Source: a virus | IMG/VR virus record: IMGVR_UViG_3300037189_005453 | Span: 15,517 to 79,516 of that record | Length of the DNA stretch: 64,000 nt | Direction: 5' to 3' (one strand) | Shown: positions 625-50,607 of the stretch, piece by piece | How the letters are laid out: every line of letters starts with the position of its first letter | Position numbering within the stretch: position 1 is the stretch's first letter | Position numbers and translations under genes: made by a program | The notes under the pieces: model-generated | What the model was told of the DNA's origin: nothing | Seen by the model: the letters and a program-made list of their open reading frames with translations, nothing else | Database searches by the model: none

Positions 625-798
625 ATGGATGACAAATACACAATTCGCCTACGCCCTGACGTGGTTCAGGAGTGGGTAAAGGATGCCAACGATGTAATGG
701 ACCGCATTACAGAGGGAACACCTATGTACAACTGGTATAAGGGACGCCGAGATGCTTGGCAAATGCTCCTGGACTACTTCGACACTGGAAGGAAATAG
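625..798 (+). CDS. hypothetical protein, 57 aa (not in ORF track)
   Basis: AAGGAG RBS, ATG 625, MDDKYTIRLRPD...DTGRK-TAG; fills the gap. Confidence 0.7.
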   Translation: MDDKYTIRLRPDVVQEWVKDANDVMDRITEGTPMYNWYKGRRDAWQMLLDYFDTGRK

Positions 799-2046: not shown

Positions 2047-2717
2047 CTGTTATCAGATACTAGCCTTCTAGGTTGTTCTGGATAATTCTGGTTGTTTGAT
2101 CCTCATTCAGAGGCTGTTGCATCTCCTTTAGAGCACTTGCTCGGTCTCCAAAAATAGCACTTAGCACGCCGCCAGAACTCTCTCGAGACGCGGTGATTTG
2201 TACAAACTCTTTGTCGGTTTCTAGGTCCTTCATGTTACCTACCAACTTAAACAAGCGGTCTATCTCCTGTGACACATTTGGGTCAGCGTAGCCGCCATTT
2301 AGCTCCTCTTGGAATCGCATGAATGCCACCCTTTGGCCCTGCATTTCAACGATTGTGGTCAACAACGCTTTCAATTGATCCTTTGTCTTAACCTCCACTG
2401 GCAGGTTAAATCCACAGGTACTTGCGGCCTTGAATGCTGGACAATTTGCTGCGACAAAACACGTGTCGCATTGTCTTACGCTCCCATAATTGGACTGAAC
2501 AACTGGTACGTCCTTTAATACTTCACGCCCATCTTCGGTCTCTACAACGGTCTTCATGTTGTATCCAAAAACAGGCATCGAAATGACCTCTTGCGGGTCT
2601 CTTTGCGTAACTTCTGCTCCTTCAGGTTTCCGCTTTTCTAAACCACTGTTATTAGAAACCACCCCCCCTATTTCCATCAAACCTGTGTATAGGGTGTCAT
2701 CACTGTTATCAGATACT
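2047..2717. repeat. dispersed 15-bp direct repeat CTGTTATCAGATACT (2047-2061, 2703-2717) plus degenerate copy CTGTTATTAGAAACC (2646-2660)
   Basis: Two exact copies and one 12/15 copy read directly from sequence. Confidence 0.85.
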
Positions 2718-3538
2718 TTATCGTTATTGGGTCGCTTTGCCATTGTCTTCTCTAACTGTAAATAGGACCAAACTGCTACTTTGGTTGCTTCCTTCGTGTC
2801 ATCTTCTACGAACTTTGTGAAATCTAGCCCAGCTTTCTCCACGACTGTTTTGTAACGCAACCGTGCCTGGGCCTTCATTTTTTTTGGATACCTGGCCAAT
2901 CTCGCTCCGTCGTACACAATGGTTTCTCCATTACGCATTGGCGACAACCAGGACAACGTGCTGACAGAATCAAACGGGATGCTTCGCAAATTATCTGGTT
3001 TTGCGGTCCCCAATCCGTGAATGCGTACATCGTACGCTCCTTTGATCCTACGGATTACGCTCGATAACACTGGCACACTATCAATCGCTGCGCCAGAAAT
3101 GGCTACATTGCTCCACTCTGCCGCCCACTGTTCCAACAACGGAACACTGTACGCTTCGTGCCAAACTACCCACAATTTTGGATCGTTTTCATACACTGCG
3201 CGGTTTTGCACAATGTCGTGCAATCCCAATACTTGTGAATCAAATTCGGTGAACCCCTCGATGCGGTCGTAATTCATCGCGATGAACTCTTCGTAATCCG
3301 ACGCGTAGGCTTCCAACTCTCCTTTGGACAGGTTGGCTTTGTCTGCCTGCGTTGCTCCGCTATCTACCCAAACTTTCATCTCTGGCAGGAAATGCTCACC
3401 AATCAGGTACGGTTTTGTTTTTGGCAAACCACGCTTACGGAGGCCCCAGTAATTCAACATTACGTTGTTTACTCCCATGGACTCCAACAGCGTCCTGTTG
3501 CTGGGGATTTCTACCCCACTAAAAATGATCTCACTCAA
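2060..3538 (-). CDS. TGT/DpdA-like (tRNA-guanine transglycosylase fold) protein fused to a C-terminal Cys-cluster/helical domain
   Basis: VWVDSGA, YEEFI, EFD, VVWH, VAISG, IHGLG, PFDSVSTLSW...RNG follow the order of phage TGT/DpdA-like motifs; C-terminal CDTC-x5-CP-x7-C. Confidence 0.65.
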   Translation of the reverse strand: MSEIIFSGVEIPSNRTLLESMGVNNVMLNYWGLRKRGLPKTKPYLIGEHFLPEMKVWVDSGATQADKANLSKGELEAYASDYEEFIAMNYDRIEGFTEFDSQVLGLHDIVQNRAVYENDPKLWVVWHEAYSVPLLEQWAAEWSNVAISGAAIDSVPVLSSVIRRIKGAYDVRIHGLGTAKPDNLRSIPFDSVSTLSWLSPMRNGETIVYDGARLARYPKKMKAQARLRYKTVVEKAGLDFTKFVEDDTKEATKVAVWSYLQLEKTMAKRPNNDKVSDNSDDTLYTGLMEIGGVVSNNSGLEKRKPEGAEVTQRDPQEVISMPVFGYNMKTVVETEDGREVLKDVPVVQSNYGSVRQCDTCFVAANCPAFKAASTCGFNLPVEVKTKDQLKALLTTIVEMQGQRVAFMRFQEELNGGYADPNVSQEIDRLFKLVGNMKDLETDKEFVQITASRESSGGVLSAIFGDRASALKEMQQPLNEDQTTRIIQNNLEG

Positions 3539-4016
3539 AATTCAACGCCTCCGTACGTGACAATCGGGCGTCTTGTGTCCTTAATGAATTTTGCTCTTCT
3601 ATGGCCTTTTCAATATCATTCCATGCGCGCACTCTCTTTGGCGCATCTGGTCTGAACTCTGGCCGCGTATAACTTGGCACGCCAAACATCATCGCTGCGA
3701 TTCCCTGCTCGAATGCAAATGCCCACAGTGTCGGATCATTTGTGATAAACAAATCCACTGCTCCAATTGAACGGGCAAATGTGATCTGTCGCTCGCCCAG
3801 CTTCTCATCAACCAGGCTCACGGATGAATCAATAATCTTATCAAAATCAACAATTTTGTTGACATCCAACCACTGTTGTGTTAACTTCGCGTCCAGCGGT
3901 GACATCAACGTGATTTTATTCCACGCACTTAACGACCCAACCGTGATAACCCCTTGGGAAATCGGTTGGTCGTTCGGGCCCCTCAGTACGCCATCTAAAT
4001 CCACCAATATTTGCAT
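3531..4016 (-). CDS. HAD-superfamily-like protein
   Basis: N-terminal ILVDLDGVL (HAD motif I, DxD). Confidence 0.6.
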   Translation of the reverse strand: MQILVDLDGVLRGPNDQPISQGVITVGSLSAWNKITLMSPLDAKLTQQWLDVNKIVDFDKIIDSSVSLVDEKLGERQITFARSIGAVDLFITNDPTLWAFAFEQGIAAMMFGVPSYTRPEFRPDAPKRVRAWNDIEKAIEEQNSLRTQDARLSRTEALNFE

Positions 4017-4126
4017 TAATAATCCTCGTCATCAGCTCCATTGCAATCACACTTGCAATAATCGTCGGTGCATATGCCCTTCAGCAATTCGTGCCCGCAC
4101 CAATGACAATAATCTGTTATGGACAC
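4016..4126 (-). CDS. 36-aa Cys-rich peptide (not in ORF track)
   Basis: MSITDYCHWCGHELLKGICTDDYCKCDCNGADDEDY; GTG overlaps the upstream TAG and TAA overlaps the downstream ATG. Confidence 0.7.
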   Translation of the reverse strand: MSITDYCHWCGHELLKGICTDDYCKCDCNGADDEDY

Positions 4127-5001
4127 TAATTGTTCCTATACAACGCCGCGCGGCGAACTAATGTGTCTGCGTCTGGCAACTCGACATGTTGCGTCAGGTT
4201 TGTTTTCATGTACTCACGAATGGCGCGCAACTTGTCAATTGTTCCATAACGCTTGCCCAACTGCCAACGATAATTGTTGAAATCGTTGTATCCTTGGCCC
4301 TCTGACGAAAATGCGATTGATCTATTTTCGTGAATCTCGTTATACAACGCGTTGGCCTGCGCAGCGGCCATCGTCATTTTGTTTTCCGCATTACGCTTCA
4401 TAGGACCATTGGATGACATCTGAACATCCTGTAATGCTCCATTAAAACGGTTATGTGCTGACTCTGCCATTTCGGCATCGCGCTTTGCAATCTGATCCCA
4501 CTCGGCGTTCCACATCGGTGTCTGATTTGGATCGGGGGTTACTGTCCAGTCGTCATGCTTCAAATCGTACGCTGCGTACGGCTTAATTGCACGGATATTT
4601 GTGGCTGAAGGATTAACATAAAACGTCAGCTCATAACCATTCCAGTTGGACGTCTGCAACTGCAGGTTTTCGTGAAACTCTTCGTTGAGTTCCGCTGCAA
4701 TTTCTCTGTCTGACAACCCTGTAAACTCTGGGTTTGCCTTACGGAATTGAATAAAATTTACCCCAACCAGGCAATCTAGGTCACCTGGTTCTCGGGCAGC
4801 CTCCCACTGGTATGAAACACCAGACCCAGCTAACCACGGTTGCGCCCACAGTTCTGGGTGTCGGTAATGGAGGTTTAGGAAATCCATCAACAGTGCCATT
4901 ATTCCTTGGCGCACCCACGAACGGAGGACCCGCCCTTCAAAAAGGGTCGGGTCCAACGTGGTCGCTGGGTGGCTGAAATAACTTGTCGGGTATACAGTCA
5001 T
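4126..5001 (-). CDS. Pol-beta superfamily nucleotidyltransferase
   Basis: LAGSGVSYQW...GDLDCLV (GS...DxD) and downstream ELTFYV third-carboxylate strand. Confidence 0.75.
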   Translation of the reverse strand: MTVYPTSYFSHPATTLDPTLFEGRVLRSWVRQGIMALLMDFLNLHYRHPELWAQPWLAGSGVSYQWEAAREPGDLDCLVGVNFIQFRKANPEFTGLSDREIAAELNEEFHENLQLQTSNWNGYELTFYVNPSATNIRAIKPYAAYDLKHDDWTVTPDPNQTPMWNAEWDQIAKRDAEMAESAHNRFNGALQDVQMSSNGPMKRNAENKMTMAAAQANALYNEIHENRSIAFSSEGQGYNDFNNYRWQLGKRYGTIDKLRAIREYMKTNLTQHVELPDADTLVRRAALYRNN

Positions 5002-5010
5002 GTAACCAGT

Positions 5011-5313
5011 TTATTCGGTTACGGATGCGCTTTCTGGGTCAATCCCGCGCTCCTTCAGCTTCTCTTTAACAGCCTCAGCTGGCGTAGGCTCCTGGGCCCC
5101 CTGCAAAACCGACAACAGTGCGATCATGATTCGGTCAGTCAACTGAGAATTCTCAATCTCCTTTACCAACGCAGCTGATGTAGTCAACACGTCATAAACG
5201 GTTGCGGTACGCTTTGCCTCAATCTTTGTTTCGGGCTGCTCGAGGTCTGCCGTAAACGTTCCGTCGGTGAATACCGATACAACGAATACTGTGTCTACTT
5301 CTTTTTCTGCCAT
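5011..5313 (-). CDS. hypothetical protein
   Basis: AGGAG RBS, compact ORF in operon. Confidence 0.7.
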   Translation of the reverse strand: MAEKEVDTVFVVSVFTDGTFTADLEQPETKIEAKRTATVYDVLTTSAALVKEIENSQLTDRIMIALLSVLQGAQEPTPAEAVKEKLKERGIDPESASVTE

Positions 5314-5329
5314 TTTTTGCTCCTATATA

Positions 5330-5899
5330 TTAATCGTACAATCCTGCCAGCATACGTCGACGCTGTAGGACCATGGAATGAACGGGACAAAAATTACACG
5401 TGTAAATCTTTGGTCCGTCCAAGTGTTCGGGTTTTGGCAGATTCAGGTCTGCTCTTTCCTTTGCGGTGTTTGGCAACAGGCGCTTTGAATCGCTCTGGTA
5501 ATCACTGCAATCCTGTTTTGGGCTGTTGTGGCGTTTCCAACAATCCATGGCGTCCTGTGCAAACGTCATCTTTGTGTCGTAAAACGACTTTTCAGGGTCT
5601 AGGTCATCCAAACCACGTGATCCTGCGCCCAAATTATCCAGAACTGCTTTGCGCTGTTCTCCATTAGCCCACGTCTTAACTGGTACTTTAAACAGTTTAC
5701 CTACGTGAGGTTCCCCCGATGGGAACTTGTGCTTCTCGAGAGTGATCTCGAGGAGGTAATCGCGGTCTGATGGGCCCTCATAATCGGGCAACTCTTCCCA
5801 TGTTTCACACACTAAACAGCGCAGCAAACGAATAACGGGCCCATCGATCTGTTTAGATCCGATGAGGGGTTTACCTGCAGGGTCAACCAATCCAGCCAA
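5330..5899 (-). CDS. hypothetical protein with CxxC pairs (probable metal binding)
   Basis: CLVC, CWKRH...C, CNFC motifs; AGGAG RBS before TTG. Confidence 0.7.
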   Translation of the reverse strand: MAGLVDPAGKPLIGSKQIDGPVIRLLRCLVCETWEELPDYEGPSDRDYLLEITLEKHKFPSGEPHVGKLFKVPVKTWANGEQRKAVLDNLGAGSRGLDDLDPEKSFYDTKMTFAQDAMDCWKRHNSPKQDCSDYQSDSKRLLPNTAKERADLNLPKPEHLDGPKIYTCNFCPVHSMVLQRRRMLAGLYD

Positions 5900-5964
5900 A
5901 ATATACTCCTATGTGGTGTTACGAATTACTTTACCGTGTTTATGCCTTTATGGCAACTAAACTC

Positions 5965-6180
5965 TTACTTTTTATCGTCCGTGTACGGTTCGCCGTTCCA
6001 CTGGATATCTGCCCACCTGCTGGCAATCGGCTTTTCACCGTCGTAGTGTGCCACCACGTGCTCCCGTGCTGCTGGCCACTCACCTAAATTAATTCGTTTT
6101 GCGTTGTGCGCCTCTACGAGATCACGGGCGAGGGCTTTAAAATACAGGTCCTTACGGCCCTCATCGTTGTCTCGTGCCAC
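5965..6180 (-). CDS. hypothetical protein
   Basis: Tightly packed ORF, GGGAAG RBS. Confidence 0.55.
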   Translation of the reverse strand: MARDNDEGRKDLYFKALARDLVEAHNAKRINLGEWPAAREHVVAHYDGEKPIASRWADIQWNGEPYTDDKK

Positions 6181-6182
6181 AA

Positions 6183-6395
6183 CTACTTCCCAGGGTTTAC
6201 GCGCGACTCTGCGGGTGCCTCTGATGTTGCAAAACCGTAACCGTAGAACGGGTGGAGGGTCTGACGGTTTTCCATGGTCTTTTCGTTACCAAGGATGTCT
6301 TCAACCTCTGTGTTTGGGCGAATCTTACGGTACTTACCGTCAGTTGCTCCTTCAGCAAGGCTTTCGTTCATTGAACGGCTGGTGTTAACTGCCAT
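6183..6395 (-). CDS. hypothetical protein
   Basis: Overlap with upstream gene; AAGGA RBS. Confidence 0.65.
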   Translation of the reverse strand: MAVNTSRSMNESLAEGATDGKYRKIRPNTEVEDILGNEKTMENRQTLHPFYGYGFATSEAPAESRVNPGK

Positions 6396-6714
6396 TTTTC
6401 AATCCTTCGTTTTTCTTTTCAACCCAGTTGTCAAGGTGTTTTGTGGGATCGACGTATGCCGAATCCAAGATTTCTGGCGAAGAAAACTCGCCTGTTCCTT
6501 TAAGTGTAGCATCGTGCTCTACGGATGCGCTGCGCAAGTAGTGTGAGGCTACCCGCATTGCCTCGTCTGCTCCATTGCCAGTGTGCTTACCGATTGCAAC
6601 GGCGCGTGCGTGCTGATACGCACTGTTTGCGTTCCTGCGAACACGTGCGGTTGTTCCTTTACGCATCAGCTCTGCTGCGGTATTCATGATCTCAATTGGA
6701 TCAGAACTAATCAT
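6385..6714 (-). CDS. hypothetical protein
   Basis: TAATG coupling. Confidence 0.6.
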   Translation of the reverse strand: MISSDPIEIMNTAAELMRKGTTARVRRNANSAYQHARAVAIGKHTGNGADEAMRVASHYLRSASVEHDATLKGTGEFSSPEILDSAYVDPTKHLDNWVEKKNEGLKNGS

Positions 6715-6911
6715 TATGCTAACCGCCCCTTTACACGGCGAGCAGCCTTGGCGTCATTGCAAGGTGGGCAAAGGAGCGAACTCATTGCCTCAACAGGGTT
6801 AAGGATTACACCGCAGGTTGGGCAGGGGGCTGATCCTCGGTAATTTACCTGGTTTTGTGCAATCTTCCATGCCTGCAGCTCTAGTGTCTCTGCACCGTCT
6901 CCATCAAACAC
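6714..6911 (-). CDS. small zinc-ribbon protein
   Basis: CPTC...CPPC; coupled start/stop. Confidence 0.65.
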   Translation of the reverse strand: MFDGDGAETLELQAWKIAQNQVNYRGSAPCPTCGVILNPVEAMSSLLCPPCNDAKAARRVKGRLA

Positions 6912-7861
6912 TACTGTCCACCTCCACTAGGACGCGCTGTTCTAGCACGGCGGTCATCCACGATGTCCTGCGCTTTTTTAGCCACTTTACCCCCCATGCG
7001 AACCATGTTTGCCTCAGAAAAACGGTTCGCAGGTACTGCTTCGTAGTCACGATCTCCACCGATGCTTTCATCGTTGTCTACCTCAGTGGGGATACCTGTG
7101 GTGCGTGCTAGGTGCTCAAACCACGCTTGACGAACGGTGTCCAGATGGCGACGAGCATTTTTCAACGAAATGTTTGGGAGTGCCTCATCCGAAGAACTCT
7201 TCAACCAGTTTTCCTTGTTTGGGGACCAGTCATCGCTCAGGATTCCTGCACCCCGATTACCTCCTATAGAACGGAGAGTACTGTTGGACGTGTGCCCTGA
7301 CGGCATACCAATTTTAACCCTAGGGGATTGATCGGGGTTTGCTTCTGCGAGTGTCAGTGCGTTTGACAGGTGGTCACTTGCCTTGGTCAAATACTTGGTT
7401 GCGTTTACAGGATCCACAGCCATAATGGCTGAACGGTGTAACGCAAGTGCCTTGTGAAACTTTTCAAGGCTATCAACGGCAGGTGCCATACGCTGGCTTG
7501 CCTCGTCGACCACGGGGACTCCGCCAACCATGTCACGCTCTGGGGGAATTCGTACCACTGCGCGAGTTTCTATTCCTTTTGCATATGGAACTTTTGCGGC
7601 AGCGACCGACTCTACGGGCTTATCAATAACAGGACTAACTCCTGCAGCGCGAAAAACACGCTCTCCCAGCTCATTTGCGATCAGCTCGAGAGCATCTCCG
7701 TGTTGCATGTTTTCACGGAATGCTGCGTGACCAGCGTTGGCCATTTGCCGTGAGATTCCACTACGGTTTCCCCCTGAAGGAATTGGGGAGTAACCAGGGG
7801 TATTATTCAGCACTTCCTTCAAACGTGCCGCTGCAATTTCTGGGTCTTGTGATTCAGCCAT
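6911..7861 (-). CDS. hypothetical protein
   Basis: 316-aa ORF abutting neighbours. Confidence 0.7.
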   Translation of the reverse strand: MAESQDPEIAAARLKEVLNNTPGYSPIPSGGNRSGISRQMANAGHAAFRENMQHGDALELIANELGERVFRAAGVSPVIDKPVESVAAAKVPYAKGIETRAVVRIPPERDMVGGVPVVDEASQRMAPAVDSLEKFHKALALHRSAIMAVDPVNATKYLTKASDHLSNALTLAEANPDQSPRVKIGMPSGHTSNSTLRSIGGNRGAGILSDDWSPNKENWLKSSSDEALPNISLKNARRHLDTVRQAWFEHLARTTGIPTEVDNDESIGGDRDYEAVPANRFSEANMVRMGGKVAKKAQDIVDDRRARTARPSGGGQ

Positions 7862-7863
7862 GA

Positions 7864-10800
7864 TTACTTCTTAAAGAATTCGGGGTGAGTTTGGGGAGTA
7901 GGTGACGGTGCTTTGGTAGCGTCAATTGCCTTTGTAATACGCTGACCCTTGGTTGTTTTCTTTGCTGCGGGCTTCTTAGCCGCTGGCTTCTTTTCCGCAG
8001 GCTTCTTGGCTGTAGACTTCTTGGCTGCAGGCTTCTTAGCTCCTTTAGCCACTGCTGATCTTTCAGCAGTTGCAGGGGTGATGTCACCAGACATAGTTGC
8101 GGCCAGCTCGTCGCGAGTCTTTGGAATCTGTCCAATTGAACGAGGACCACCACTGGGAACAGGTTCGGGTCGGAATCCAGCTTGACGCTGATCCCAACGA
8201 ATGCTCTGCTCCTTCTCCAGCTGCTTTTTGATTGCGTCTTCATCGCGCTCTTCAACAGGCTTTTCAGGAGCTTCAATTTCAACGTCCTCGGCTTTACGTC
8301 CAATACCAGACTGGGTAACGTTGGGAGACTCTTTACCGAGAGACGCAACGTGGACTCCACGGTTTACTACAGGAACAGGTGTGGCCTGGACTGTCTCGGG
8401 AGCAGACTCTCCTGTTCTCCACTGGACCTGTTCCTCTGACTCTGCACCAGTTCCAGAACGCTGACCGTCGATATCCATCGGTAGTCCCTTTTCGCGACCA
8501 CGAAGTCGGGAAGTTGATAGTCCTTTAGAACGCTTAATAAACTCTCTAATGATGTCCTTTGGAACACCTGAGAAGTCTGGGTGGCCTTCTTTAATCATTT
8601 TACGAGCGATGTTGAGCTTTTCCTTCATACCCTCGTCGGCCAGGTTAAACGTGTCTTCGCTTCCGTTTAGATCAACACCTGTTGGAACGTGTGTGATCTT
8701 GTACATGGTTTTTCCATTAGCGTCCTGGGATGTCTCAACCTTAATCTTGGGGCCCAGGTCAGCAGCATGAACAATCGAGGCAGGAATCGGGTTAGTTTTA
8801 ACTGTCTGAGTACGCTCCGACACCTTACCTGCACGGTTGAACTTGACCTTTGCGTCACGCTTAGCAATCTTCTCAGTTTCATCCAGGTTTAGGGGAGAAG
8901 GCGCGCGCCCTACGGCGTCTGCAACGTGAACGTACTTGTTAACGGGTTTTTCTCCTTTAACAGACAGTTCATCTCCACCACCGTAGGAAAGTTGCTGGTG
9001 AATGTCCTTAATCGTGGCGATGTGCTTTACCAGCTCTTTACGAGCAAACTCACCTGCTTCACGACCAGATACGATCTTTTGCTGTGTTGCGCGAACTCCG
9101 CCAGGAGTCGGGCTGTCAGAGAAGTCGAGGGCAACCCGCGGGAGATGCTGTTGGCCCAGGTATCCCTTGATACGGTCAAGGGCGGCCATCGTCTTAACAA
9201 GGCGGGCGGCCTGTGTCTGAATGTGCTTGTGGACTTCAGGAGCACCGTATGCGAGGGTCGGTGATGCGGTCCACTCACCATTAGCGTCAAGGATCTTTCC
9301 CACCTGCTGTCCGCGACCATCTGTCACAGTATTGTCAGCGGTTGCTGCCGCTGGGGTGTGGGTAATTGATCGAATGTGCGCGGCAAGGCGCTGAGCTGCG
9401 CCGTGTACCTCAGTGAGGGTTTTGAGTGGACTTTGATATAGCGCACCCGAGTCAGTGTTGGCGAGTTCTGATGCCAGGCTTGGTTTTTCGGGCTCGCGCT
9501 CTGTGTTAACTGCGGTAAAGGAGTTGGGGGTTGCCTGTTTCTTTACCCAGTTCTTCTGGGCATCGGCCAGATATGGCTCGGCCGCTGCGTTTTCCGCTTC
9601 TTGCTCTGGGGTTAGCTTATTGCGCTTTTTACCCGTGTGACGAGTGTGCGGCAGTGAGTAGCCACTTATCTCGTCAAAGTGAAGGAGGTCTTTTCCGCTC
9701 TTCTTGCTGGCAGTCTTTGGGGATTTGTACCCCTCAAGACCACGCCACTGAGGCGAACTCTGGTCTTCTGGAAGAGCGGTGTACTTGGTTGGGTGGTACT
9801 TGGTTCCATCAACCGCGTAAGGTTTGGTAGGAATGTGGCCTTCCAACCCTTCCCAGTCCTCGTGTGATCGGTCGGATGGCAGGGGGAAACCTGTCCTGGG
9901 GTGATATGGGAGGCCGCCCTGGAAGAACGGACGAGTCCTGTCGATGATAATATCCTGGGGAACATGGGCTTCCCAGTTGCTGTGTACGCTCATATCACGT
10001 TCTGGAGCCTCTTCGGCACGCTGTCTACGAGCTTCGCGTTGAGCTGCCTCTGCGTCCTTCAGGGTTTCAAAAGCCCCCCTAAACGTACCGTTTCGCGAGC
10101 TGCCTCGACCTGTCATGCCCTGAACGATTTCTTCATTTTGGGCAGAGGTTCGTTCCGCGTTTTCGGCTCGTTGCTGCTCCCTTACACTACGCTGTTGCTC
10201 CTGCTCGGGAGTAGCGGGGCTCGAGTCAATAGTGAGTCCTTTGCCTTGACCGCGAGGTGCAGTATTTGCGCGAATCGCGTCAATCTCGGCCTGATGGGCT
10301 GCCAGCATTTCTGGAGTCTTTCGACGTCCTCTGTTAAGAGACTCAAACTGACGCTGCTTAGCGTCAACCCGACGCTCGTTATCTGCCTTAATAAGCTCTA
10401 GCTGTTTTGCACGCTTTTCGGGATCGTCATACTTTTCGGAAAGAGAAATCTCATTACCCTGGGGTTGGAAAATGCTAATTCTGCCGCCGAGTTCGTTTGT
10501 GGGGGTAACAAACGGCTTAGTTTCTTCGCTAGATTCCCCAATCTCTGGCATAACACCAGTACCTGCAGCAACTCCTGAACGTCCAAAAATGGCACGCTTA
10601 GTAAGCCCCTTTTCCCAAAGAGCTGCTCCCGTGCTATCAGGTTTCCCAATGCTTCGGTCGCGGTCTTTAACGCGGGCAGGCTCCCTGAGTCGACTAGGTA
10701 ATGATGCCCCAATGCCGCCTACTCTTACGGGAGTCGGCTTTAGTGCCTGGCCCTTTTCGTCTGTTCCAAGTCGGCTCATAACCTGGTTGTAAATGTGGTG

Positions 10801-11076
10801 AGGGATAATGTGCTTAGGCCATGACTGGATGTCGGCGGATCGGACCTCACCGTTTTGAGGGTTGTACGGAAGCCTATTTCCCTGCTCATCCGCGTGAAAT
10901 GCACTGTGAGTAACACCAGAGGATGTGGGTGCTTGATCGGCCGTGCGAACACGTGCAACGACCTGACTAATCAGGGCCTCATCGGGGTTGCGACCTGCAG
11001 CTGGCTGCTGTGAGCCACCGTCTTCGCTCCCTGCGCCACCGCGTGCTTGGTGAAATGCGCCGCTAGTACCAGCCAT
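7864..11076 (-). CDS. large low-complexity, Cys-free protein with AKKP (histone H1/HupB-like) C-terminal tail
   Basis: 1070 aa; AGGAG RBS; C-terminal AKKPAAKKSTAKKPAEKKPAAKKPAAKK. Confidence 0.8.
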   Translation of the reverse strand: MAGTSGAFHQARGGAGSEDGGSQQPAAGRNPDEALISQVVARVRTADQAPTSSGVTHSAFHADEQGNRLPYNPQNGEVRSADIQSWPKHIIPHHIYNQVMSRLGTDEKGQALKPTPVRVGGIGASLPSRLREPARVKDRDRSIGKPDSTGAALWEKGLTKRAIFGRSGVAAGTGVMPEIGESSEETKPFVTPTNELGGRISIFQPQGNEISLSEKYDDPEKRAKQLELIKADNERRVDAKQRQFESLNRGRRKTPEMLAAHQAEIDAIRANTAPRGQGKGLTIDSSPATPEQEQQRSVREQQRAENAERTSAQNEEIVQGMTGRGSSRNGTFRGAFETLKDAEAAQREARRQRAEEAPERDMSVHSNWEAHVPQDIIIDRTRPFFQGGLPYHPRTGFPLPSDRSHEDWEGLEGHIPTKPYAVDGTKYHPTKYTALPEDQSSPQWRGLEGYKSPKTASKKSGKDLLHFDEISGYSLPHTRHTGKKRNKLTPEQEAENAAAEPYLADAQKNWVKKQATPNSFTAVNTEREPEKPSLASELANTDSGALYQSPLKTLTEVHGAAQRLAAHIRSITHTPAAATADNTVTDGRGQQVGKILDANGEWTASPTLAYGAPEVHKHIQTQAARLVKTMAALDRIKGYLGQQHLPRVALDFSDSPTPGGVRATQQKIVSGREAGEFARKELVKHIATIKDIHQQLSYGGGDELSVKGEKPVNKYVHVADAVGRAPSPLNLDETEKIAKRDAKVKFNRAGKVSERTQTVKTNPIPASIVHAADLGPKIKVETSQDANGKTMYKITHVPTGVDLNGSEDTFNLADEGMKEKLNIARKMIKEGHPDFSGVPKDIIREFIKRSKGLSTSRLRGREKGLPMDIDGQRSGTGAESEEQVQWRTGESAPETVQATPVPVVNRGVHVASLGKESPNVTQSGIGRKAEDVEIEAPEKPVEERDEDAIKKQLEKEQSIRWDQRQAGFRPEPVPSGGPRSIGQIPKTRDELAATMSGDITPATAERSAVAKGAKKPAAKKSTAKKPAEKKPAAKKPAAKKTTKGQRITKAIDATKAPSPTPQTHPEFFKK

Positions 11077-11077
11077 A

Positions 11078-11437
11078 TTAGTTTGCTCCTAAATCATTGC
11101 GGCTGCTACCACTGTAGCTGCCAGCTCCTCCAGAATACCAGGAAACACGGGGCTCCACATAGTTTCTGTCAACACTTACAACGTCATCAATCTCGGGTTG
11201 AGTTCGATCTCCATAACCAAATCTGGGGGGAAACAACTGGATCTGTGGAATGTTTGGCCTAACAATTTCTTGCAGTTTTGCTCCAGGAATGGTAGCAACG
11301 GCGAGTGCTTGCTGTGTCAACCGCTCTTCATTTGACGACCACGGTCCGTTGTACGTCCATCGAGGATTGCCATCAGGAGTAGTAACGCCCTGTTGCCAGG
11401 GTTTGGTGTAATCGTATCTTCCATCAAACTGAGACAT
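11078..11437 (-). CDS. hypothetical protein
   Basis: TAATG coupling. Confidence 0.65.
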   Translation of the reverse strand: MSQFDGRYDYTKPWQQGVTTPDGNPRWTYNGPWSSNEERLTQQALAVATIPGAKLQEIVRPNIPQIQLFPPRFGYGDRTQPEIDDVVSVDRNYVEPRVSWYSGGAGSYSGSSRNDLGAN

Positions 11438-11748
11438 TATTCGCCCTCATTCCATGGAAGTTCCTCAAACTTCTCAAAGTCAATGTTTGATTCAGAGAAA
11501 CCGTACATCTCTGGTTCGGGGTTAAGTGGGCGCAAGTGATCAATTGGTGATTCGTGGCGGTAATACTCCGACATCGAGTTTTGGTGTGGGTGCTCAAACC
11601 CCTCATAGTTCCCAATATCAAACATCTCATTAGGCTCGATACGCCAATCTTCATAACGATTCAGACGAAGGGCGTTATAGCTGTCGTGATACGGGCTGTT
11701 GTGATTAAAACTGCTAGATACTTTGCGGCCCATCATGATTACGCCCAC
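11437..11748 (-). CDS. hypothetical acidic protein (start uncertain)
   Basis: Fills gap, overlaps neighbours. Confidence 0.55.
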   Translation of the reverse strand: MGVIMMGRKVSSSFNHNSPYHDSYNALRLNRYEDWRIEPNEMFDIGNYEGFEHPHQNSMSEYYRHESPIDHLRPLNPEPEMYGFSESNIDFEKFEELPWNEGE

Positions 11749-12272
11749 CTAGGCTTTAGGTAATTCAACTGGTTGGCACGCTGCACGTTAATGGTTCCAG
11801 GAGAGTCGGAACGCATGTTGGACTTACCATCATTAACAAGGTGAGGAGCGGGGGTGAGTCGGATGTCCTGTGTGTAACGTTTGGTTGCCCACACCGTAAC
11901 GCCATTAATTTCTACTTGTTTTGCCTTCATCTGGCGCTGAATGCTGGTTTGATCGTTGAAGTCGGGGCTCCAGTAGTAGGCGGACGGCTCGATGCGCTCA
12001 CCCTTGTGCACACCACGCTGATATGCTTTCTGGTTGACCCTATTCTTAATGGAGTCAAGGAGGCGGTCATCACGACGCGAACGAATTGTTCCCAGGTACC
12101 CATCAGGATACTCGGCTGAAGGAACGCGGCCCGTGCCAATACGGATGGCATCCAGATCACCTCGAGCTACGGGGCCACCGTAACCGCCTTGGTTGTTGTA
12201 TCCGTTTAGTCCATTACCACCAATAGACTGCCAGTTTTGCTGGGGGCTAAAGTTATTGACTGCACCAGCCAT
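11739..12272 (-). CDS. hypothetical protein
   Basis: GGAG RBS, TAATG coupling. Confidence 0.7.
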   Translation of the reverse strand: MAGAVNNFSPQQNWQSIGGNGLNGYNNQGGYGGPVARGDLDAIRIGTGRVPSAEYPDGYLGTIRSRRDDRLLDSIKNRVNQKAYQRGVHKGERIEPSAYYWSPDFNDQTSIQRQMKAKQVEINGVTVWATKRYTQDIRLTPAPHLVNDGKSNMRSDSPGTINVQRANQLNYLKPRWA

Positions 12273-12553
12273 TACTGTGCTCCAATACTTCCACCAAAGA
12301 CTGTTCCAGAAGTGTCGGCAGTATATGCGTTCGGGTGCTGGCGTTCTTTAGCAATATCACTGCTGTAGAAATTAAACGCAGTAGACTGACGAGTAAATTT
12401 GCTACCTGGTCGAACAGTCGGGCCAACCTGGCGGTAATCGTCAATACTAGAAACGTGGTTAGCAGCAGACACGGGCGACAAGCGTAGTGTTGCTTCTTTA
12501 GGCCCAAGAACCCGCATTTGACTACCCGAAGTAACGTTGTGAGCCATTTCCAT
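12272..12553 (-). CDS. hypothetical protein
   Basis: AAGGA RBS. Confidence 0.6.
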   Translation of the reverse strand: MEMAHNVTSGSQMRVLGPKEATLRLSPVSAANHVSSIDDYRQVGPTVRPGSKFTRQSTAFNFYSSDIAKERQHPNAYTADTSGTVFGGSIGAQ

Positions 12554-12564
12554 GTTAATGTTCC

Positions 12565-12822
12565 TTAACGTTGAGGGGCCTGGTATGTGCCAGAGCTGAG
12601 GGTGTTTGCTCCAAGAGGCATAAACCCAGTAACAAAACGCGCGTCCATATCGCGATCAACTGGGTTCCCAGTAAACTGGTTAACGCTTAGAGGACGTGGG
12701 CTGCGCATAGAGGCCACGTTAATGTCCCGAACACGCTGAACTCCGCTATCACTGCTTACTTCAGGATTAGCGGAATTGGGGTTAAACGTGGAGCTGGTAG
12801 CGTCCATGCCAGTAGAAGGCAT
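12565..12822 (-). CDS. hypothetical protein
   Basis: Purine-rich RBS, fills gap. Confidence 0.6.
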   Translation of the reverse strand: MPSTGMDATSSTFNPNSANPEVSSDSGVQRVRDINVASMRSPRPLSVNQFTGNPVDRDMDARFVTGFMPLGANTLSSGTYQAPQR

Positions 12823-12832
12823 ACCCTACCCC

Positions 12833-13276
12833 TTAGTAAGCGGCCTGAATACCAGATTCGAAGTTCGGGTTAGTACGGCCCTGTACAGAAGGAATGACAC
12901 GGGCGTTAGCCATTGTCGGACCTGCTGCGGGGTCAACCTGAACGAACGTCGACTTGGGCTGAACGCGGAAAGTAGCACCAATATTTTCAATGTTGGCACG
13001 GTTCTGCTTTGAACCTGCACCTGTAGGATCAGCAGACTTGACGTTTTTGCGAGGCATCTGAGTGCCTGCAGTAGGCATAACAGGGGTAAAGGAGGGCATG
13101 TTGCTCTCCGCTGCTCCTACAGAAATGCGGTGGCTGCCAGCTGCAGCTGCCTGTGCGTGAGCCTCATCTGAGGTCTGGTGTGAACGTGCCATGCTGGTAC
13201 CTGCTGCTTCCAAAGGGTTTGAGGGGATTCCGCTACGACGACGCATTGCGTGTCCCACACTGTACTGAGTTGCCAT
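12833..13276 (-). CDS. hypothetical protein
   Basis: AAGGAG RBS; preceded by a TATCCT -10-like hexamer. Confidence 0.7.
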   Translation of the reverse strand: MATQYSVGHAMRRRSGIPSNPLEAAGTSMARSHQTSDEAHAQAAAAGSHRISVGAAESNMPSFTPVMPTAGTQMPRKNVKSADPTGAGSKQNRANIENIGATFRVQPKSTFVQVDPAAGPTMANARVIPSVQGRTNPNFESGIQAAY

Positions 13277-48306: not shown

Positions 48307-48696
48307 TTATTTAGCAGCAGAAGGGCTAAACGTATTAGGCATCCAGTCTTGATTCATGGCAGTTTTATACGCGTGACAGTTAGCGCACAGTGTCATGAGA
48401 TTAGATGTGTCGTTATTAGCTTTACTTCCGTCAATGTGATCGACGTGAAGCTGTGAGGCGTGCAAAGCTACAAAGCCACACTTTTCACAATAGTCTTTTT
48501 TATGTGCACGCCAAGGGGCGCGCTTTGCGAGAGTAGATGTGCGGTGAGCTGTTTTACAGCGCCAATACTTTCCGCCGTCAGTCTTGTACTTTCCAGTATG
48601 GACAATCTTTACTAGGGTCTCGCACTTATCGCAATACGCCATGAGGAGATCTTCGTCGATCTCCGTAAGTAGATGGGGGGGTCGTCTGGTCATCAC
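48307..48696 (-). CDS. free-standing HNH endonuclease
   Basis: CEKCG...LHVDHIDG...NN...NLMTLCANCH. Confidence 0.9.
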   Translation of the reverse strand: MMTRRPPHLLTEIDEDLLMAYCDKCETLVKIVHTGKYKTDGGKYWRCKTAHRTSTLAKRAPWRAHKKDYCEKCGFVALHASQLHVDHIDGSKANNDTSNLMTLCANCHAYKTAMNQDWMPNTFSPSAAK

Positions 48697-48707
48697 TTAA
48701 AGCATAG

Positions 48708-48737
48708 CAAAAGGGCCCCTGCACAGCAAGGGCCCAA
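48708..48737 (-). terminator. intrinsic terminator after the basic-protein array
   Basis: GGGCCCTT-loop-AGGGGCCC followed by TTTTG on - strand. Confidence 0.8.
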
Positions 48738-48750
48738 ATGTTTGTGTTGG

Positions 48751-49002
48751 TTACTTCTTTCCAGCCGCCTTGATGCGCTTAGCCAGTGCATTGTCCTTCT
48801 TGGTGTCTTCCTTCTTGGTAAGGGTCTTGTCCTTATCCATCTTGGCGTCACCCTTCTTGAACTTTGCCTTCTGAGCAGGAGTCATACCCTTCATGGTTTT
48901 TGCATCCTGCTTCTTGTCGGCTGCTGAGCCGATGTACTTCTTCTTGCTGTCTGCCATGCGCTTCTTACAGTCAGCACACTTTCCACACTTACACATTGCC
49001 AT
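48751..49002 (-). CDS. small Lys-rich protein with N-terminal CKCGKCADC
   Basis: AAGGAG RBS before MAMCKCGKC. Confidence 0.7.
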   Translation of the reverse strand: MAMCKCGKCADCKKRMADSKKKYIGSAADKKQDAKTMKGMTPAQKAKFKKGDAKMDKDKTLTKKEDTKKDNALAKRIKAAGKK

Positions 49003-49042
49003 TGCTTTTCTCCTTGCCACACTTACATTGTCCATTGCACAT
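48989..49042 (-). CDS. 17-aa Cys peptide MCNGQCKCGKEKSNGNV (not in ORF track)
   Basis: TAATG coupled to upstream ORF, GGGAG RBS. Confidence 0.4.
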   Translation of the reverse strand: MCNGQCKCGKEKSNGNV

Positions 49043-49194
49043 TATTTCTTCTCCCGATATGCTTTAGCGGTAGTTTTGCTCTTCAACTTACGGTCCTTCA
49101 AGGTTTGAACTCTCGCCTTGTTGGGTTCTTTTGAAAAGCGGGTCTCTTTAGCTCCTTTAGGTTTTAGATCATCTAAAGGATTTTTTCTAGGCAT
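49042..49194 (-). CDS. 50-aa Lys/Arg-rich protein (not in ORF track)
   Basis: MPRKNPLDDLKPK...AYREKK; TAATG coupled at both ends. Confidence 0.7.
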   Translation of the reverse strand: MPRKNPLDDLKPKGAKETRFSKEPNKARVQTLKDRKLKSKTTAKAYREKK

Positions 49195-49361
49195 TACTTG
49201 CCCTTCTTGACGCCAGAAACCTTCTTCAGGTCTGGGTTCTTTTTAACTGCAGTCTTACTGGCCTTACGAGCACCAGATGCCAGGATAGCACCAGCCGCTT
49301 TCATTGAGACGCCCTGCTTCTTAGCAATCTTCTTCTGGTTAGCCTTAAAACCTTCGGTCAT
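49194..49361 (-). CDS. 55-aa Lys-rich protein (not in ORF track)
   Basis: MTEGFKANQKKIAKKQGVSMKAAGAILASGARKASK...; ATGA/TAATG overlaps. Confidence 0.75.
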   Translation of the reverse strand: MTEGFKANQKKIAKKQGVSMKAAGAILASGARKASKTAVKKNPDLKKVSGVKKGK

Positions 49362-49654
49362 TTTTTTCCTACCCTACGCTTATTCTCTTTAGCCGTATTC
49401 TTACCGTGAGCTAGAGGGCGCAGGTTTGACTTGCGGTCATCAGAGTGCTTGTTGTTCTTGTGGTCTACGTCAGTTCCTTTAGGAAGCTTACGCCCAGACT
49501 TCTGCTCGTAGTCTTCACGAGCTTTGTTCTTAGACTCAGTCTTCCATCCTGTAGCTGTTTTTACTTTCCAAACGTAGATCTCTCGCCCACCATTTTGGGC
49601 TGATCCTTTATAGGGACCAAACTTCTTTCGAGTCCCAACCTTAACTTCAGCCAT
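49358..49654 (-). CDS. basic protein with minimal HNH motif
   Basis: DVDHKNN...D..SNLR...N. Confidence 0.7.
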   Translation of the reverse strand: MAEVKVGTRKKFGPYKGSAQNGGREIYVWKVKTATGWKTESKNKAREDYEQKSGRKLPKGTDVDHKNNKHSDDRKSNLRPLAHGKNTAKENKRRVGKK

Positions 49655-49899
49655 TAGCGGTGCCTCGCAGTCTTTTTGGCAATCTTCTTAGGCTGAGCAA
49701 CAAACTGCTTTCCAGGTTTGCCGCCATCTCCTTTAGACTTTGCACGGTTAGTAGCAGCCTTTTCAGCGGGAGTCAGGTCAGCCCAAGCTTTCTTTGGGAG
49801 GTAGCGCTTTTTTCCTTTAGACGGCTTACCGTCTGAGGTAGTCCACTCTTCCTTAGTCCACTTATCCAGAGACTTCTGCGGCTTTGCTTTAGCGGTCAC
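49654..49899 (-). CDS. small Lys-rich protein (DUF5872-like part)
   Basis: QKSLDKWTKEEWTT..GK....RYLPKKAW...GKQFVAQP. Confidence 0.7.
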   Translation of the reverse strand: MTAKAKPQKSLDKWTKEEWTTSDGKPSKGKKRYLPKKAWADLTPAEKAATNRAKSKGDGGKPGKQFVAQPKKIAKKTARHR

Positions 49900-50102
49900 T
49901 TGTAGCCACCGCCAGCCTTTTTGTACTCTGATGCAAGAAGCTGTGCTTTACGGGCCGACCATTCACCTGGGTCTCCGCCCTTGGTTCCAGCTTTGATCTG
50001 CTTAAAAAGCCTTTCACGAAGAGCTGGCTTCGTGTAGTTTCCAGCCTCATTAACCCGCGACTTAGTCGCAGGCTTTTTAGCAGCAGGTTTCTTAGTAGGC
50101 AT
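49896..50102 (-). CDS. small Lys-rich protein (DUF5872-like part)
   Basis: YTKPALRE...GEWSARKAQLLA..YKKAGGGY. Confidence 0.7.
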   Translation of the reverse strand: MPTKKPAAKKPATKSRVNEAGNYTKPALRERLFKQIKAGTKGGDPGEWSARKAQLLASEYKKAGGGYK

Positions 50103-50317
50103 TACTTAATCCTCGGGTGTTCCTTATGGAACTTTTTGGTCTCTTTGACGCCTTGCTTTACGGTCTTTGCGCCAGCAAGCTTGGTCAGGTTCATGCGTTC
50201 TTTCTTACCTGACTTGCTGTTTTGCTCGACAATGATGTCGCCTTTTTTACCAGCGCCTTTGTCGACTTTCTTTTTGGTGACTGTGTGCTTTTTGCCACCA
50301 GCTGTAATGCGCGTCAT
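50102..50317 (-). CDS. small Lys-rich protein
   Basis: TAATG coupled; start MTRITAGG. Confidence 0.7.
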   Translation of the reverse strand: MTRITAGGKKHTVTKKKVDKGAGKKGDIIVEQNSKSGKKERMNLTKLAGAKTVKQGVKETKKFHKEHPRIK

Positions 50318-50607
50318 TACCACTTCACCTTGTTGGCCCAATAAGCGGCAGACATTTTACCTTTAGCAATGTTCTTTGCGTGACGAGCTTGGAATGATTC
50401 ACGACGCTTACGGTACGCCTCGGACTCGCCCTTTTTCTTAGGAGAACCCTTAACACCGTGCTGACCAAAACGAATCAGCTTGATCTGGTCACCCTCTTTT
50501 GCAACAACTACGTGAGAGTGCTTGGGGTCATTGGGCGTGGCTTTAGGCTTGTTGTACCCTGAAACACCTGCTCGAGCAAGGCGTGGGTCTTTCTTTTTCT
50601 CTGCCAT
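50317..50607 (-). CDS. small basic phage protein
   Basis: KLIRFGQ.G...RRESFQARH...SAAYWANKVKW. Confidence 0.75.
   Translation of the reverse strand: MAEKKKDPRLARAGVSGYNKPKATPNDPKHSHVVVAKEGDQIKLIRFGQHGVKGSPKKKGESEAYRKRRESFQARHAKNIAKGKMSAAYWANKVKW

Follow-up and report, generated by a model that had tools for sequence, protein, structure and literature searches.

In a 64,000-nucleotide stretch of a phage genome (IMG/VR virus record IMGVR_UViG_3300037189_005453, 79,516 bases; the stretch, called the window below and the basis of all positions unless stated otherwise, is genome bases 15517-79516), a single operon is purged of a very short word on its sense strand. The word is CTY (Y, C or T), and the purge follows one promoter-led operon that encodes fam2, fam4, a nucleotidyltransferase candidate, a small Cys-rich peptide, a HAD-like protein and a TGT/DpdA-like protein. 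Such a pattern arises only if selection acts against the word or if something damages the word as a whole, and in both cases we infer that some agent recognizes it. We propose, tentatively and with rather less than even belief, that the zone is the footprint of an undescribed class of strand-specific readers of 3-4 bases (KCUY in RNA or RAGM in DNA; K, G or T; R, A or G; M, A or C) taking part in phage-host conflict, and that the operon is a counter-measure module with a built-in immunity to the agent it opposes.

The trough is deep and occurs once. From hand counts, the first-pass annotation had put the AG dinucleotides on the + strand of 2341-4620 at about 32; a recount gives 32, against 149.8 expected from the window mean. 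As had been noted there, most survivors are CAG (24 of the 32, with TAG 6, AAG 1 and GAG 1), AAG is missing from a long interval (exact limits 2254 and 4609), and between 2186 and 4688 GAG occurs only once, at 3441. Neither base composition nor a general loss of related words explains this shortage, since GA (80), CT (172) and TC (194) on the same strand of 2341-4620 show no comparable loss; with + strand CT kept, the depletion is one-stranded, as first described. In a sliding scan of the 16 dinucleotides across the entire 79,516-base genome, the AG observed/expected ratio is lowest at 3485-4484, where it drops to 0.24 (z = -4.1), and there is only this one trough. Such a scan had been suggested as a check; neither this genome nor 7 complete relatives have a comparable dip elsewhere.

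Because all genes in the zone lie on the - strand, the purged word is CT(Y) on the sense strand, and the template (+) strand reads RAGM. The two longest CTY-free runs of the - strand, 1187 and 1168 nt, are adjacent, split by a single CTC at 3440-3442, and the next longest such run genome-wide is 412 nt. KCTY is absent from 2341-4620, where 34.4 are expected, and its longest - strand gap, from about 2257 to 5147, compares with gaps of at most 704 nt elsewhere. The zone can be divided as follows.

2257-4607, - strand: core of the purge, where sense-strand CTT and CTC are absent except for one CTC (AAG and GAG thus being gone from the + strand)
2257-5147, - strand: KCTY-free run of 2892 nt, without GCTT, GCTC, TCTT or TCTC
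4608-7000, - strand: shoulder of intermediate depletion, comprising the 5' part of the nucleotidyltransferase gene, fam4, fam2 and small upstream genes

In the shoulder, CT falls to 9.9-13.2 per 100 codons against about 20 genome-wide, and the intermediate AG level reported to the right of the trough is measurable out to about 7 kb. Within this genome the word is lost abruptly at 4608 and comes back slowly in the direction of 2300, with a minimum at the 3' end of the nucleotidyltransferase gene and in the HAD gene; the final ~200-240 nt of the dpdA-like gene (2060-2300) are unpurged. The depletion crosses the dpdA-like, HAD, Cys peptide and nucleotidyltransferase genes, which agrees with the earlier description of an effect spanning several genes.

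The purge acts on the word and not on codon choice. With 40 kb of other - strand genes as the reference, the sense strand retains CTT at 0.02, CTC at 0.03, ACT at 0.09, TCT at 0.11, CTA at 0.19, GCT at 0.23, CCT at 0.47 and CTG at 0.56, whereas the complementary words AAG and GAG remain common there (1.14x and 1.26x background) and the + strand of 2341-4620 keeps 55 CTT and 46 CTC. Codon usage is distorted to match: TTG supplies 56% of Leu codons in the zone (15% elsewhere), CTT 0% (35%) and CTG 19% (16%); ACT falls from 36% to 0% for Thr and GCT from 36% to 3% for Ala; T-ending codons without a preceding C are kept (GTT 34%, CGT 34%, ATT 51%). When the zone proteins were re-encoded with genome codon usage in 2000 shuffles, 138.7 +/- 7.8 CT and 70.1 +/- 6.1 CTY were obtained, and none of the 2000 came down to the observed 30 and 2. 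Codon-shuffled controls had been named in advance as a possible refutation of the dip, and they do not reproduce it.

Codon junctions provide the sharper test. A synonymous shuffle that keeps local usage predicts 18.1 +/- 3.2 C|TY junctions (the bar marks the codon boundary) and 0 are observed (0/2000). The purge thus reaches all three codon phases, as had been claimed for codon positions, together with the junctions and a small coupled open reading frame, and an effect of tRNA supply or of codons cannot explain purged junctions. The same proteins could be encoded with anywhere from 0 to more than 130 CT, which means that the purge is synonymous recoding and that the residual CT is not forced. 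Explanations by ultraviolet damage, Rho, anti-Shine-Dalgarno pairing and tRNA supply were weighed and discarded; neither TT nor CC shows depletion, and NCC codons persist.

Context-specific C-to-T change was rejected, because it would turn the Leu codons CTT and CTC into Phe and would hit CTG no less than CTY, and CTG codons are kept; moreover, NCT codons can be lost only through non-synonymous changes at C or through changes at T. Selection of the required strength is feasible in this phage group, as judged from other purged words: GATC occurs 0 times against about 350 expected in six of eight genomes (G002, G003 and G006-G009; 293 in this genome and 303 in G001), AGCT occurs 0 times in G002, and TCGA is reduced to 95 against 349 expected in G006. 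Only this genome has an adenine methyltransferase of the Dam family (PF05869; genome bases 4194-4625).

The operon that carries the purge reads, from its promoter onwards, as follows.

5928-5956, - strand: promoter-like TTGCCA-17-TAAAGT, about 25 nt upstream of the fam2 ribosome-binding site
5330-5899, - strand: fam2, 189 amino acids, first gene of the operon, rich in Cys and His residues that are invariant in the alignment
5011-5313, - strand: fam4, 100 amino acids, operon member, syntenic in all relatives
4126-5001, - strand: putative Pol-beta-type nucleotidyltransferase, 291 amino acids, with a GS...DLD motif identified by eye
4016-4126, - strand: Cys-rich open reading frame of 36 amino acids (CxxC...C...CxCxC), translationally coupled to the nucleotidyltransferase and HAD genes
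3531-4016, - strand: HAD-like protein, 161 amino acids, N-terminal DLDGV; 0 CTY and 0 NCT codons
2060-3538, - strand: TGT/DpdA-like protein, 492 amino acids, with a C-terminal Cys-cluster and helical part (phrog_887, E 2.7e-67)

A TANNNT -10 element lies at the matching place in most relatives, and in the loci L009, L013 and L019 a terminator hairpin stands just upstream of the promoter site. The sigma-A-like promoter of its own and these upstream terminators indicate that this tightly coupled gene set is a separate transcription unit; it closes a leftward gene array of 62 kb. An apparent opposite-strand gene upstream of fam2 was discarded as the antisense frame of real small genes. The edge of the purge core, near 4608, falls inside the nucleotidyltransferase gene.

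Homologues in the Streptomyces phage GiJojo are annotated dpdA-like and, for the HAD protein, hydrolase, and the 36-residue Cys-rich frame is kept in many relatives. The dpdA-like protein has no match to Pfam TGT (PF01702); its low-confidence N-terminal model (predicted local distance difference test score, pLDDT, 49) suggests a beta/alpha repeat with generic TIM-barrel matches that include TGT. No Pfam match was obtained for the nucleotidyltransferase candidate and no fold match for the fam2 model, itself of low confidence (pLDDT 63). Searches of Pfam, NCBIfam, PDB sequences and the Atlas returned nothing for the operon proteins. In the fam2 alignment (5330-5899, - strand), column 72 is Leu in all normal relatives and mostly Val or Ile in the purged ones, and certain amino-acid changes may thus be a consequence of the word purge.

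Comparison with relatives separates the zone from the accidents of one genome. Protein searches led to 215 relatives in IMG/VR, of which 80 were retrieved, and these gave 57 distinct loci with enough flank; the complete relatives are circularly closed contigs with arbitrary starts. A nucleotide search of the phage collection gave no match. One 97-kb relative, L123, has a normal CTT count. About half of the 57 loci have a block KCTY density of 1-6.6 per kb and the others 10-19 per kb, and the words depleted in purged loci are always CTT, CTC and TCT; no other purged word was found in the normal relatives. A clade at 60-63% identity is uniformly normal, and the Streptomyces phages BRock and GiJojo (about 36% identity) have the same gene set with normal CT content. 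The dip is accordingly shared by only part of the relatives, and where present it tracks the TGT-like operon and not the repeated boxes described below.

Codon junctions confirm this division, their deficit recurring in all purged relatives and being absent from normal ones. Observed over expected C|TY junctions are 2/32 in this window, 6/33 in L003, 4/25 in L010 and 7/33 in L018 among purged loci, against 35/40 in L009 and 43/39.5 in L014 among normal ones, and pooled junction-only z values are -13.6 for CT and -9.6 for TC in purged loci as against -0.6 and -3.5 in normal ones. Gene by gene, low densities are limited to the stretch from fam2 to dpdA, with the lowest values at HAD and dpdA. 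Where RTPR, of the adenosylcobalamin type, is the next gene after dpdA (L010, L018, L022, L006), its first ~1 kb is purged as well. The zone is unique within each of eight complete or near-complete genomes, six of them purged, and no sampled genome is purged throughout. Its outline varies by lineage, ramping to a cliff in L010 and being flat in L003. In L003 the 3' ~200 nt of dpdA are unpurged, as here. In L003, L010 and L018 its start lies close to the promoter-proximal gene, the first of the operon. A gene-content comparison of purged with normal complete genomes gave no convincing marker. A mirror-image depletion across the convergent junction was looked for and set aside: the early array is no more than mildly low, in some genomes (G006, G008), without a KCTY preference.

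These relatives also bear on whether the zone is a recently imported cassette with the composition of another genome. Phage mosaicism, which would lend itself to such an import, is evident: in L019, fam2 and fam4 are purged whereas dpdA and RTPR are normal, and L006 has an HNH endonuclease gene (L006:9503-10084, - strand) between its dpdA-like and RTPR genes and on the opposite strand to them. This gene looks like a homing endonuclease at a recombination-prone junction. The depletion is nevertheless one of words, with purged codon junctions. CTY density is graded across relatives, from 2.9 to 37 CTY/kb, and this continuum does not follow the dpdA tree, on which purge state is scattered; L019 (35 CTY/kb) adjoins L016 (9) and L022 (6). 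Third-codon identity between relatives is 0.38-0.58, which is saturated, and the purge persists in at least 28 lineages whose divergence exceeds synonymous saturation. Scattered state and saturated synonymous sites together argue for a current constraint, actively maintained by selection and repeatedly gained or lost, as would suit an enzyme that depends on the host or a partner, and not for one import. With no genome purged throughout among those sampled, we regard the junction tests and the relatives as having largely refuted donor bias, and give it scant probability. If the sharp RTPR edge stemmed from recent recombination, third-position identities show no sign of it, although unsampled donors are possible.

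The relatives also allow the word to be defined more exactly. In the most purged zones the residual CTY are CCTC 15, ACTC 12, CCTT 10 and ACTT 9, whereas with K in front there remain only TCTC 3, GCTC 2, GCTT 1 and TCTT 0. Expressed as a ratio to normal relatives, KCTY stands at 0.00-0.07, ACTY at 0.10-0.23 and CCTY at 0.19-0.43; CTA (0.76) and CTG (0.82), pooled over six purged relatives, are nearly spared. G006 has 0 KCTY over 3.3 kb. The word is CTY, avoided most strictly as KCTY, then as ACTY, then as CCTY, and on the template strand it reads, strictest first, RAGM, RAGT, RAGG.

The first-pass annotation had explained the zone by a factor loaded at a fixed point next to a set of repeats and acting in one direction. 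The repeats are the following.

2047-2060, + strand: box CTGTTATCAGATAC, directly after the stop codon of the dpdA-like gene
2703-2716, + strand: second copy of CTGTTATCAGATAC, inside the dpdA-like gene
2646-2659: degenerate third copy of the box

The 14-nt box reads GTATCTGATAACAG on the sense strand and holds the palindrome TTATCnGATAA; it is probably a protein-binding site. Under that earlier explanation a packaging, entry or translocase factor would load at the CTGTTATCAGATAC boxes near 2050-2700 and act rightward, leaving a footprint that decays. In this genome some 250 nt do separate the start of the zone from the box at 2047, the depletion weakens past 4600, and the boxes, including the intergenic copy, are conserved: in relatives they lie at dpdA +820 and just past the stop codon. 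They do so, however, both in purged genomes and in the unpurged G002, and in L010, L018, L022 and L006 the zone overshoots the boxes by 0.9-1 kb. The sharp start beside the repeats holds for this genome only, as the zones of relatives pass the boxes or differ in outline, and in L003, L010 and L018 the zone starts at the promoter end of the operon. With boxes in unpurged relatives, zones that overrun them, a lineage-specific profile and a purge that follows the transcription unit, one-way loading is not supported, and we consider it highly improbable. As to the agent, four had been offered: localized base modification or excision with mutational decay, avoidance of cut or stall sites next to a packaging or entry point, absence of primase sites, and a message purged of CU against an RNase. 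We hold all four to be possible, and rank the purged message first and the primase as a minor rival.

We propose, as a possibility that we favor without holding it to be likely, that the operon mRNA has become resistant to cutting by a short-motif RNase. KCUY would be the cutting site of an endoribonuclease of the MazF or MqsR kind, supplied either by the host as an abortive-infection toxin or by the phage as the HicA-like protein encoded nearby. An operon message free of this site could be translated while the RNase is active, when its products would be needed. Those products may be nucleic-acid repair or modification enzymes, and the other phage messages could wait until the threat had been handled. 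The edge near 2300 and the fading would then represent a lineage-specific outline of the purge, and not the track of a loaded factor. This proposal makes sense of a loss confined to the sense strand, in any frame, within a unit that has its own promoter. RNase words of three bases are documented, namely ACA for MazF and G^CU for MqsR (PMC8546651, Table 1).

Several points weigh against an RNase. The edges lie inside genes, given that about 200 nt at the dpdA 3' end are unpurged here and in L003 and about 1 kb at the RTPR 5' end is purged, and the 5' part of the nucleotidyltransferase gene is less purged; whole-cistron logic does not predict such intragenic edges, which embarrass an RNA and a DNA reader alike. 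We know of no RNase with KCUY specificity. Neither the convergent array nor the replication genes, presumably needed early, are purged. Finally, to call the operon an 'antidote' is conjecture, and its sole family match is to DNA-modifying DpdA-like proteins.

The phage itself encodes one candidate for such an RNase.

1684-1920, + strand: HicA-like protein, 78 amino acids (PADLOC PDLC02910, E 9.5e-12)

This gene is the final one of the array that converges on the operon, with no HicB-like partner beside it. Among near-complete relatives, 10 of the 11 purged ones have it, as do 2 of the 7 normal ones; the purged G018 lacks it, whereas the normal G003 and G011 carry it. We rejected it as the determinant of the purge, the association being weak, confounded by phylogeny and subject to exceptions in both directions, which makes the gene neither necessary nor sufficient. 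The specificity of HicA is also described as 'poorly defined' (PMC8546651).

It is also possible, if rather unlikely, that the reader acts on DNA, as a strand-specific nicking, base-excising or base-exchanging activity at template RAGM that belongs to a host defence or to a phage TGT-like system. Hits on the template would stop RNA polymerase, those on the opposite strand would not, and a modification operon that cannot protect its own new copy would have to be cleared of the word. An operon encoding a TGT/DpdA-like protein fits this scheme, the GATC and AGCT purges of the same group show that nuclease-driven selection is strong, and intragenic edges are easier to obtain from a positional DNA process. 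Short DNA words of this kind have precedents: the motifs of characterized phage DpdA enzymes comprise 2-3 nt (GA and GGC for CAjan, PMC7544227; GA for iggy, PMC10484667), and a chlorovirus nickase, Nt.CviQII, cuts at R^AG and is paired with M.CviQII, which methylates AG (PMC3017599). On the other side, CAjan's dpdA cluster has no local GA dip, all other genes of this phage keep normal template-strand RAG, and polymerase would still be stopped at the 14 CTY left upstream of the core, from the promoter to 4608.

The enzymes that would accompany such a system were also looked for. QueC (PF06508), the marker of preQ0 synthesis, is absent from this genome and from five complete relatives; host preQ0 might be used instead of a phage-made supply. 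Pfam scans of 40 larger proteins for a nickase or an AG-specific methyltransferase gave only the Dam-family methyltransferase, no search with the chlorovirus proteins having been made. To our knowledge, nickases with sites of 3-4 bases have not been described from bacteria or phages. Since the prior for short-motif RNases is much higher, we rank an RNA reader above a DNA reader. The two proposals share one logic, namely that an operon directed against a threat has to withstand that threat itself.

Edges that look positional and not gene-based could also point to an agent acting on an exposed single sense strand in a bubble, R-loop or origin, such as a DnaG primase starting at CTY, a deaminase or an ADP-ribosyltransferase. 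The zone has the strongest GC skew of the genome with a purine-rich sense strand, and the phage genes include those for a DnaG-like primase and a DnaB-like helicase. Priming by DnaG begins at CTN trinucleotides, the third base depending on the bacterial class: CTA/TTA in Firmicutes and CTG/CTA in Proteobacteria (PMC2978363). A primase or deaminase specific for CTY is nonetheless hypothetical, simple C-to-T change cannot remove Leu CTT and CTC (non-synonymously) while sparing CTG, no iterons or AT-rich unwinding element were seen, and there is no reason for one operon in a 62 kb co-oriented array to be without priming sites. We therefore consider such an agent improbable.

Self-inflicted damage in cis deserves mention because the purge is centered on HAD and dpdA in all purged relatives, spilling into the adjoining 5' part of RTPR or upstream genes, and is limited to this operon. 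Here the operon's base-exchanging or nucleotidyl-transferring enzymes would act first and most strongly on their own gene or message, and the word would have decayed, or have been selected away, nearby, less so with distance. A comparison of purged with normal operon proteins speaks against this: no residue separates them cleanly in 1199 columns of five operon proteins, the best reaching a balanced accuracy of 0.95 with mixed residues (the 36-residue Cys peptide, which has no usable columns, was omitted), and nothing therefore suggests enzymes of different specificity. The dpdA 3' end, nearest to protein release, is unpurged here, and strand specificity requires an extra assumption. Damage in cis appears quite improbable to us.

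Least probable of all, to the point of being remote, is avoidance of the protospacer adjacent motif (PAM) of a type I-E CRISPR (clustered regularly interspaced short palindromic repeats) system, AAG and then GAG, near a frequently primed site. The order of depletion, AAG, GAG, TAG, CAG, does resemble the type I-E PAM preference, and type I-E systems are common in Actinobacteria. AAG and GAG are abundant on the opposite strand, however, which leaves the region targetable, and AAG is not avoided genome-wide. The PAMs of primed acquisition face the priming site, which would place that site where the purge is weakest.

The surroundings of the operon are as follows. The phage is actinophage-like, about 91-95 kb if complete, with PolA and RecA in addition to the primase and helicase, and this assembly has no terminal repeat; among sequencing runs, the source metagenome alone contains the stretch, as contigs, and no RNA run is listed for it. 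The array opposite the operon includes WhiB, a pyrimidine-dimer glycosylase and the HicA-like protein, and the two convergent arrays are separated by a hairpin.

1964-1994, no strand assigned: perfect 11-bp hairpin AATCCCCCCTG / CAGGGGGGATT, followed by a T-rich stretch, between the convergent arrays

Further away, the early array carries a MoxR-like AAA ATPase (AAA_5) followed by a VWA-domain protein at genome bases 9709-13042 (+ strand). A single tRNA gene, tRNA-Ser(UGA), was found, at genome bases 697-782 (- strand), and the 64 kb window has none. The highest AG observed/expected ratio of the genome (up to 1.9) coincides with its lowest AT ratio at about 48500-50500; all eight genomes compared have this RAG peak in the corresponding position, and it probably reflects Lys/Glu-rich proteins.

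Set against known systems, the purge shares parts with several. Restriction-site avoidance is similar in that a short word is fully removed by selection, as GATC and AGCT are in the relatives, and differs in that the word here is asymmetric and cleared from one strand of one ~3-4 kb operon, whereas restriction sites are palindromic and avoided genome-wide. Animal-virus footprints of APOBEC3 and ZAP, host enzymes that deplete words of 2-3 bases in single-stranded nucleic acid, are eukaryotic and usually genome- or strand-wide, not restricted to one operon. The first-entering DNA of T7-like and T5-like phages is site-free (PMC12455610, PMC10644984), and there too sites are locally absent where genes work before protection is in place; the present word has 3-4 bases on one strand, however, and the zone sits, by gene order, at the tail of a 62 kb array next to a convergent one. 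Transcripts free of toxin-RNase sites, as for MazF and MqsR, likewise lack a sense-strand word of three bases irrespective of frame, although KCUY is not a known specificity and the present purge has edges inside genes.

Among DNA systems, the Nt.CviQII/M.CviQII pair is the closest in word, since RAG equals the purged template word and a viral reader of a short word is combined with a protective modification; it comes from an algal (eukaryote) virus, and protects by methylation and not by site absence. Phage DpdA 7-deazaguanine systems offer a TGT/DpdA-like protein and DNA motifs of 2-3 bases, whereas the present protein lacks a Pfam TGT match, QueC is missing, and the CAjan cluster shows no dip. 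Known word avoidance by phages concerns palindromic restriction sites and leading-end DNA; what is new here is the combination of an asymmetric word of 3-4 bases, one strand and one operon, switched on or off among close relatives. Some enzyme would seem to read a very short asymmetric word in a way that matters for one TGT-like/HAD/nucleotidyltransferase gene set, and KCTY/RAGM gives a concrete word with which to seek it, be it an RNase, a nickase or a base-exchanger. If the proposal is correct, the TGT-like, nucleotidyltransferase and HAD set would constitute a new repair or modification system tied to KCTY/RAGM, and local one-strand purges could be mined across phages for the specificity of defence and counter-defence enzymes.

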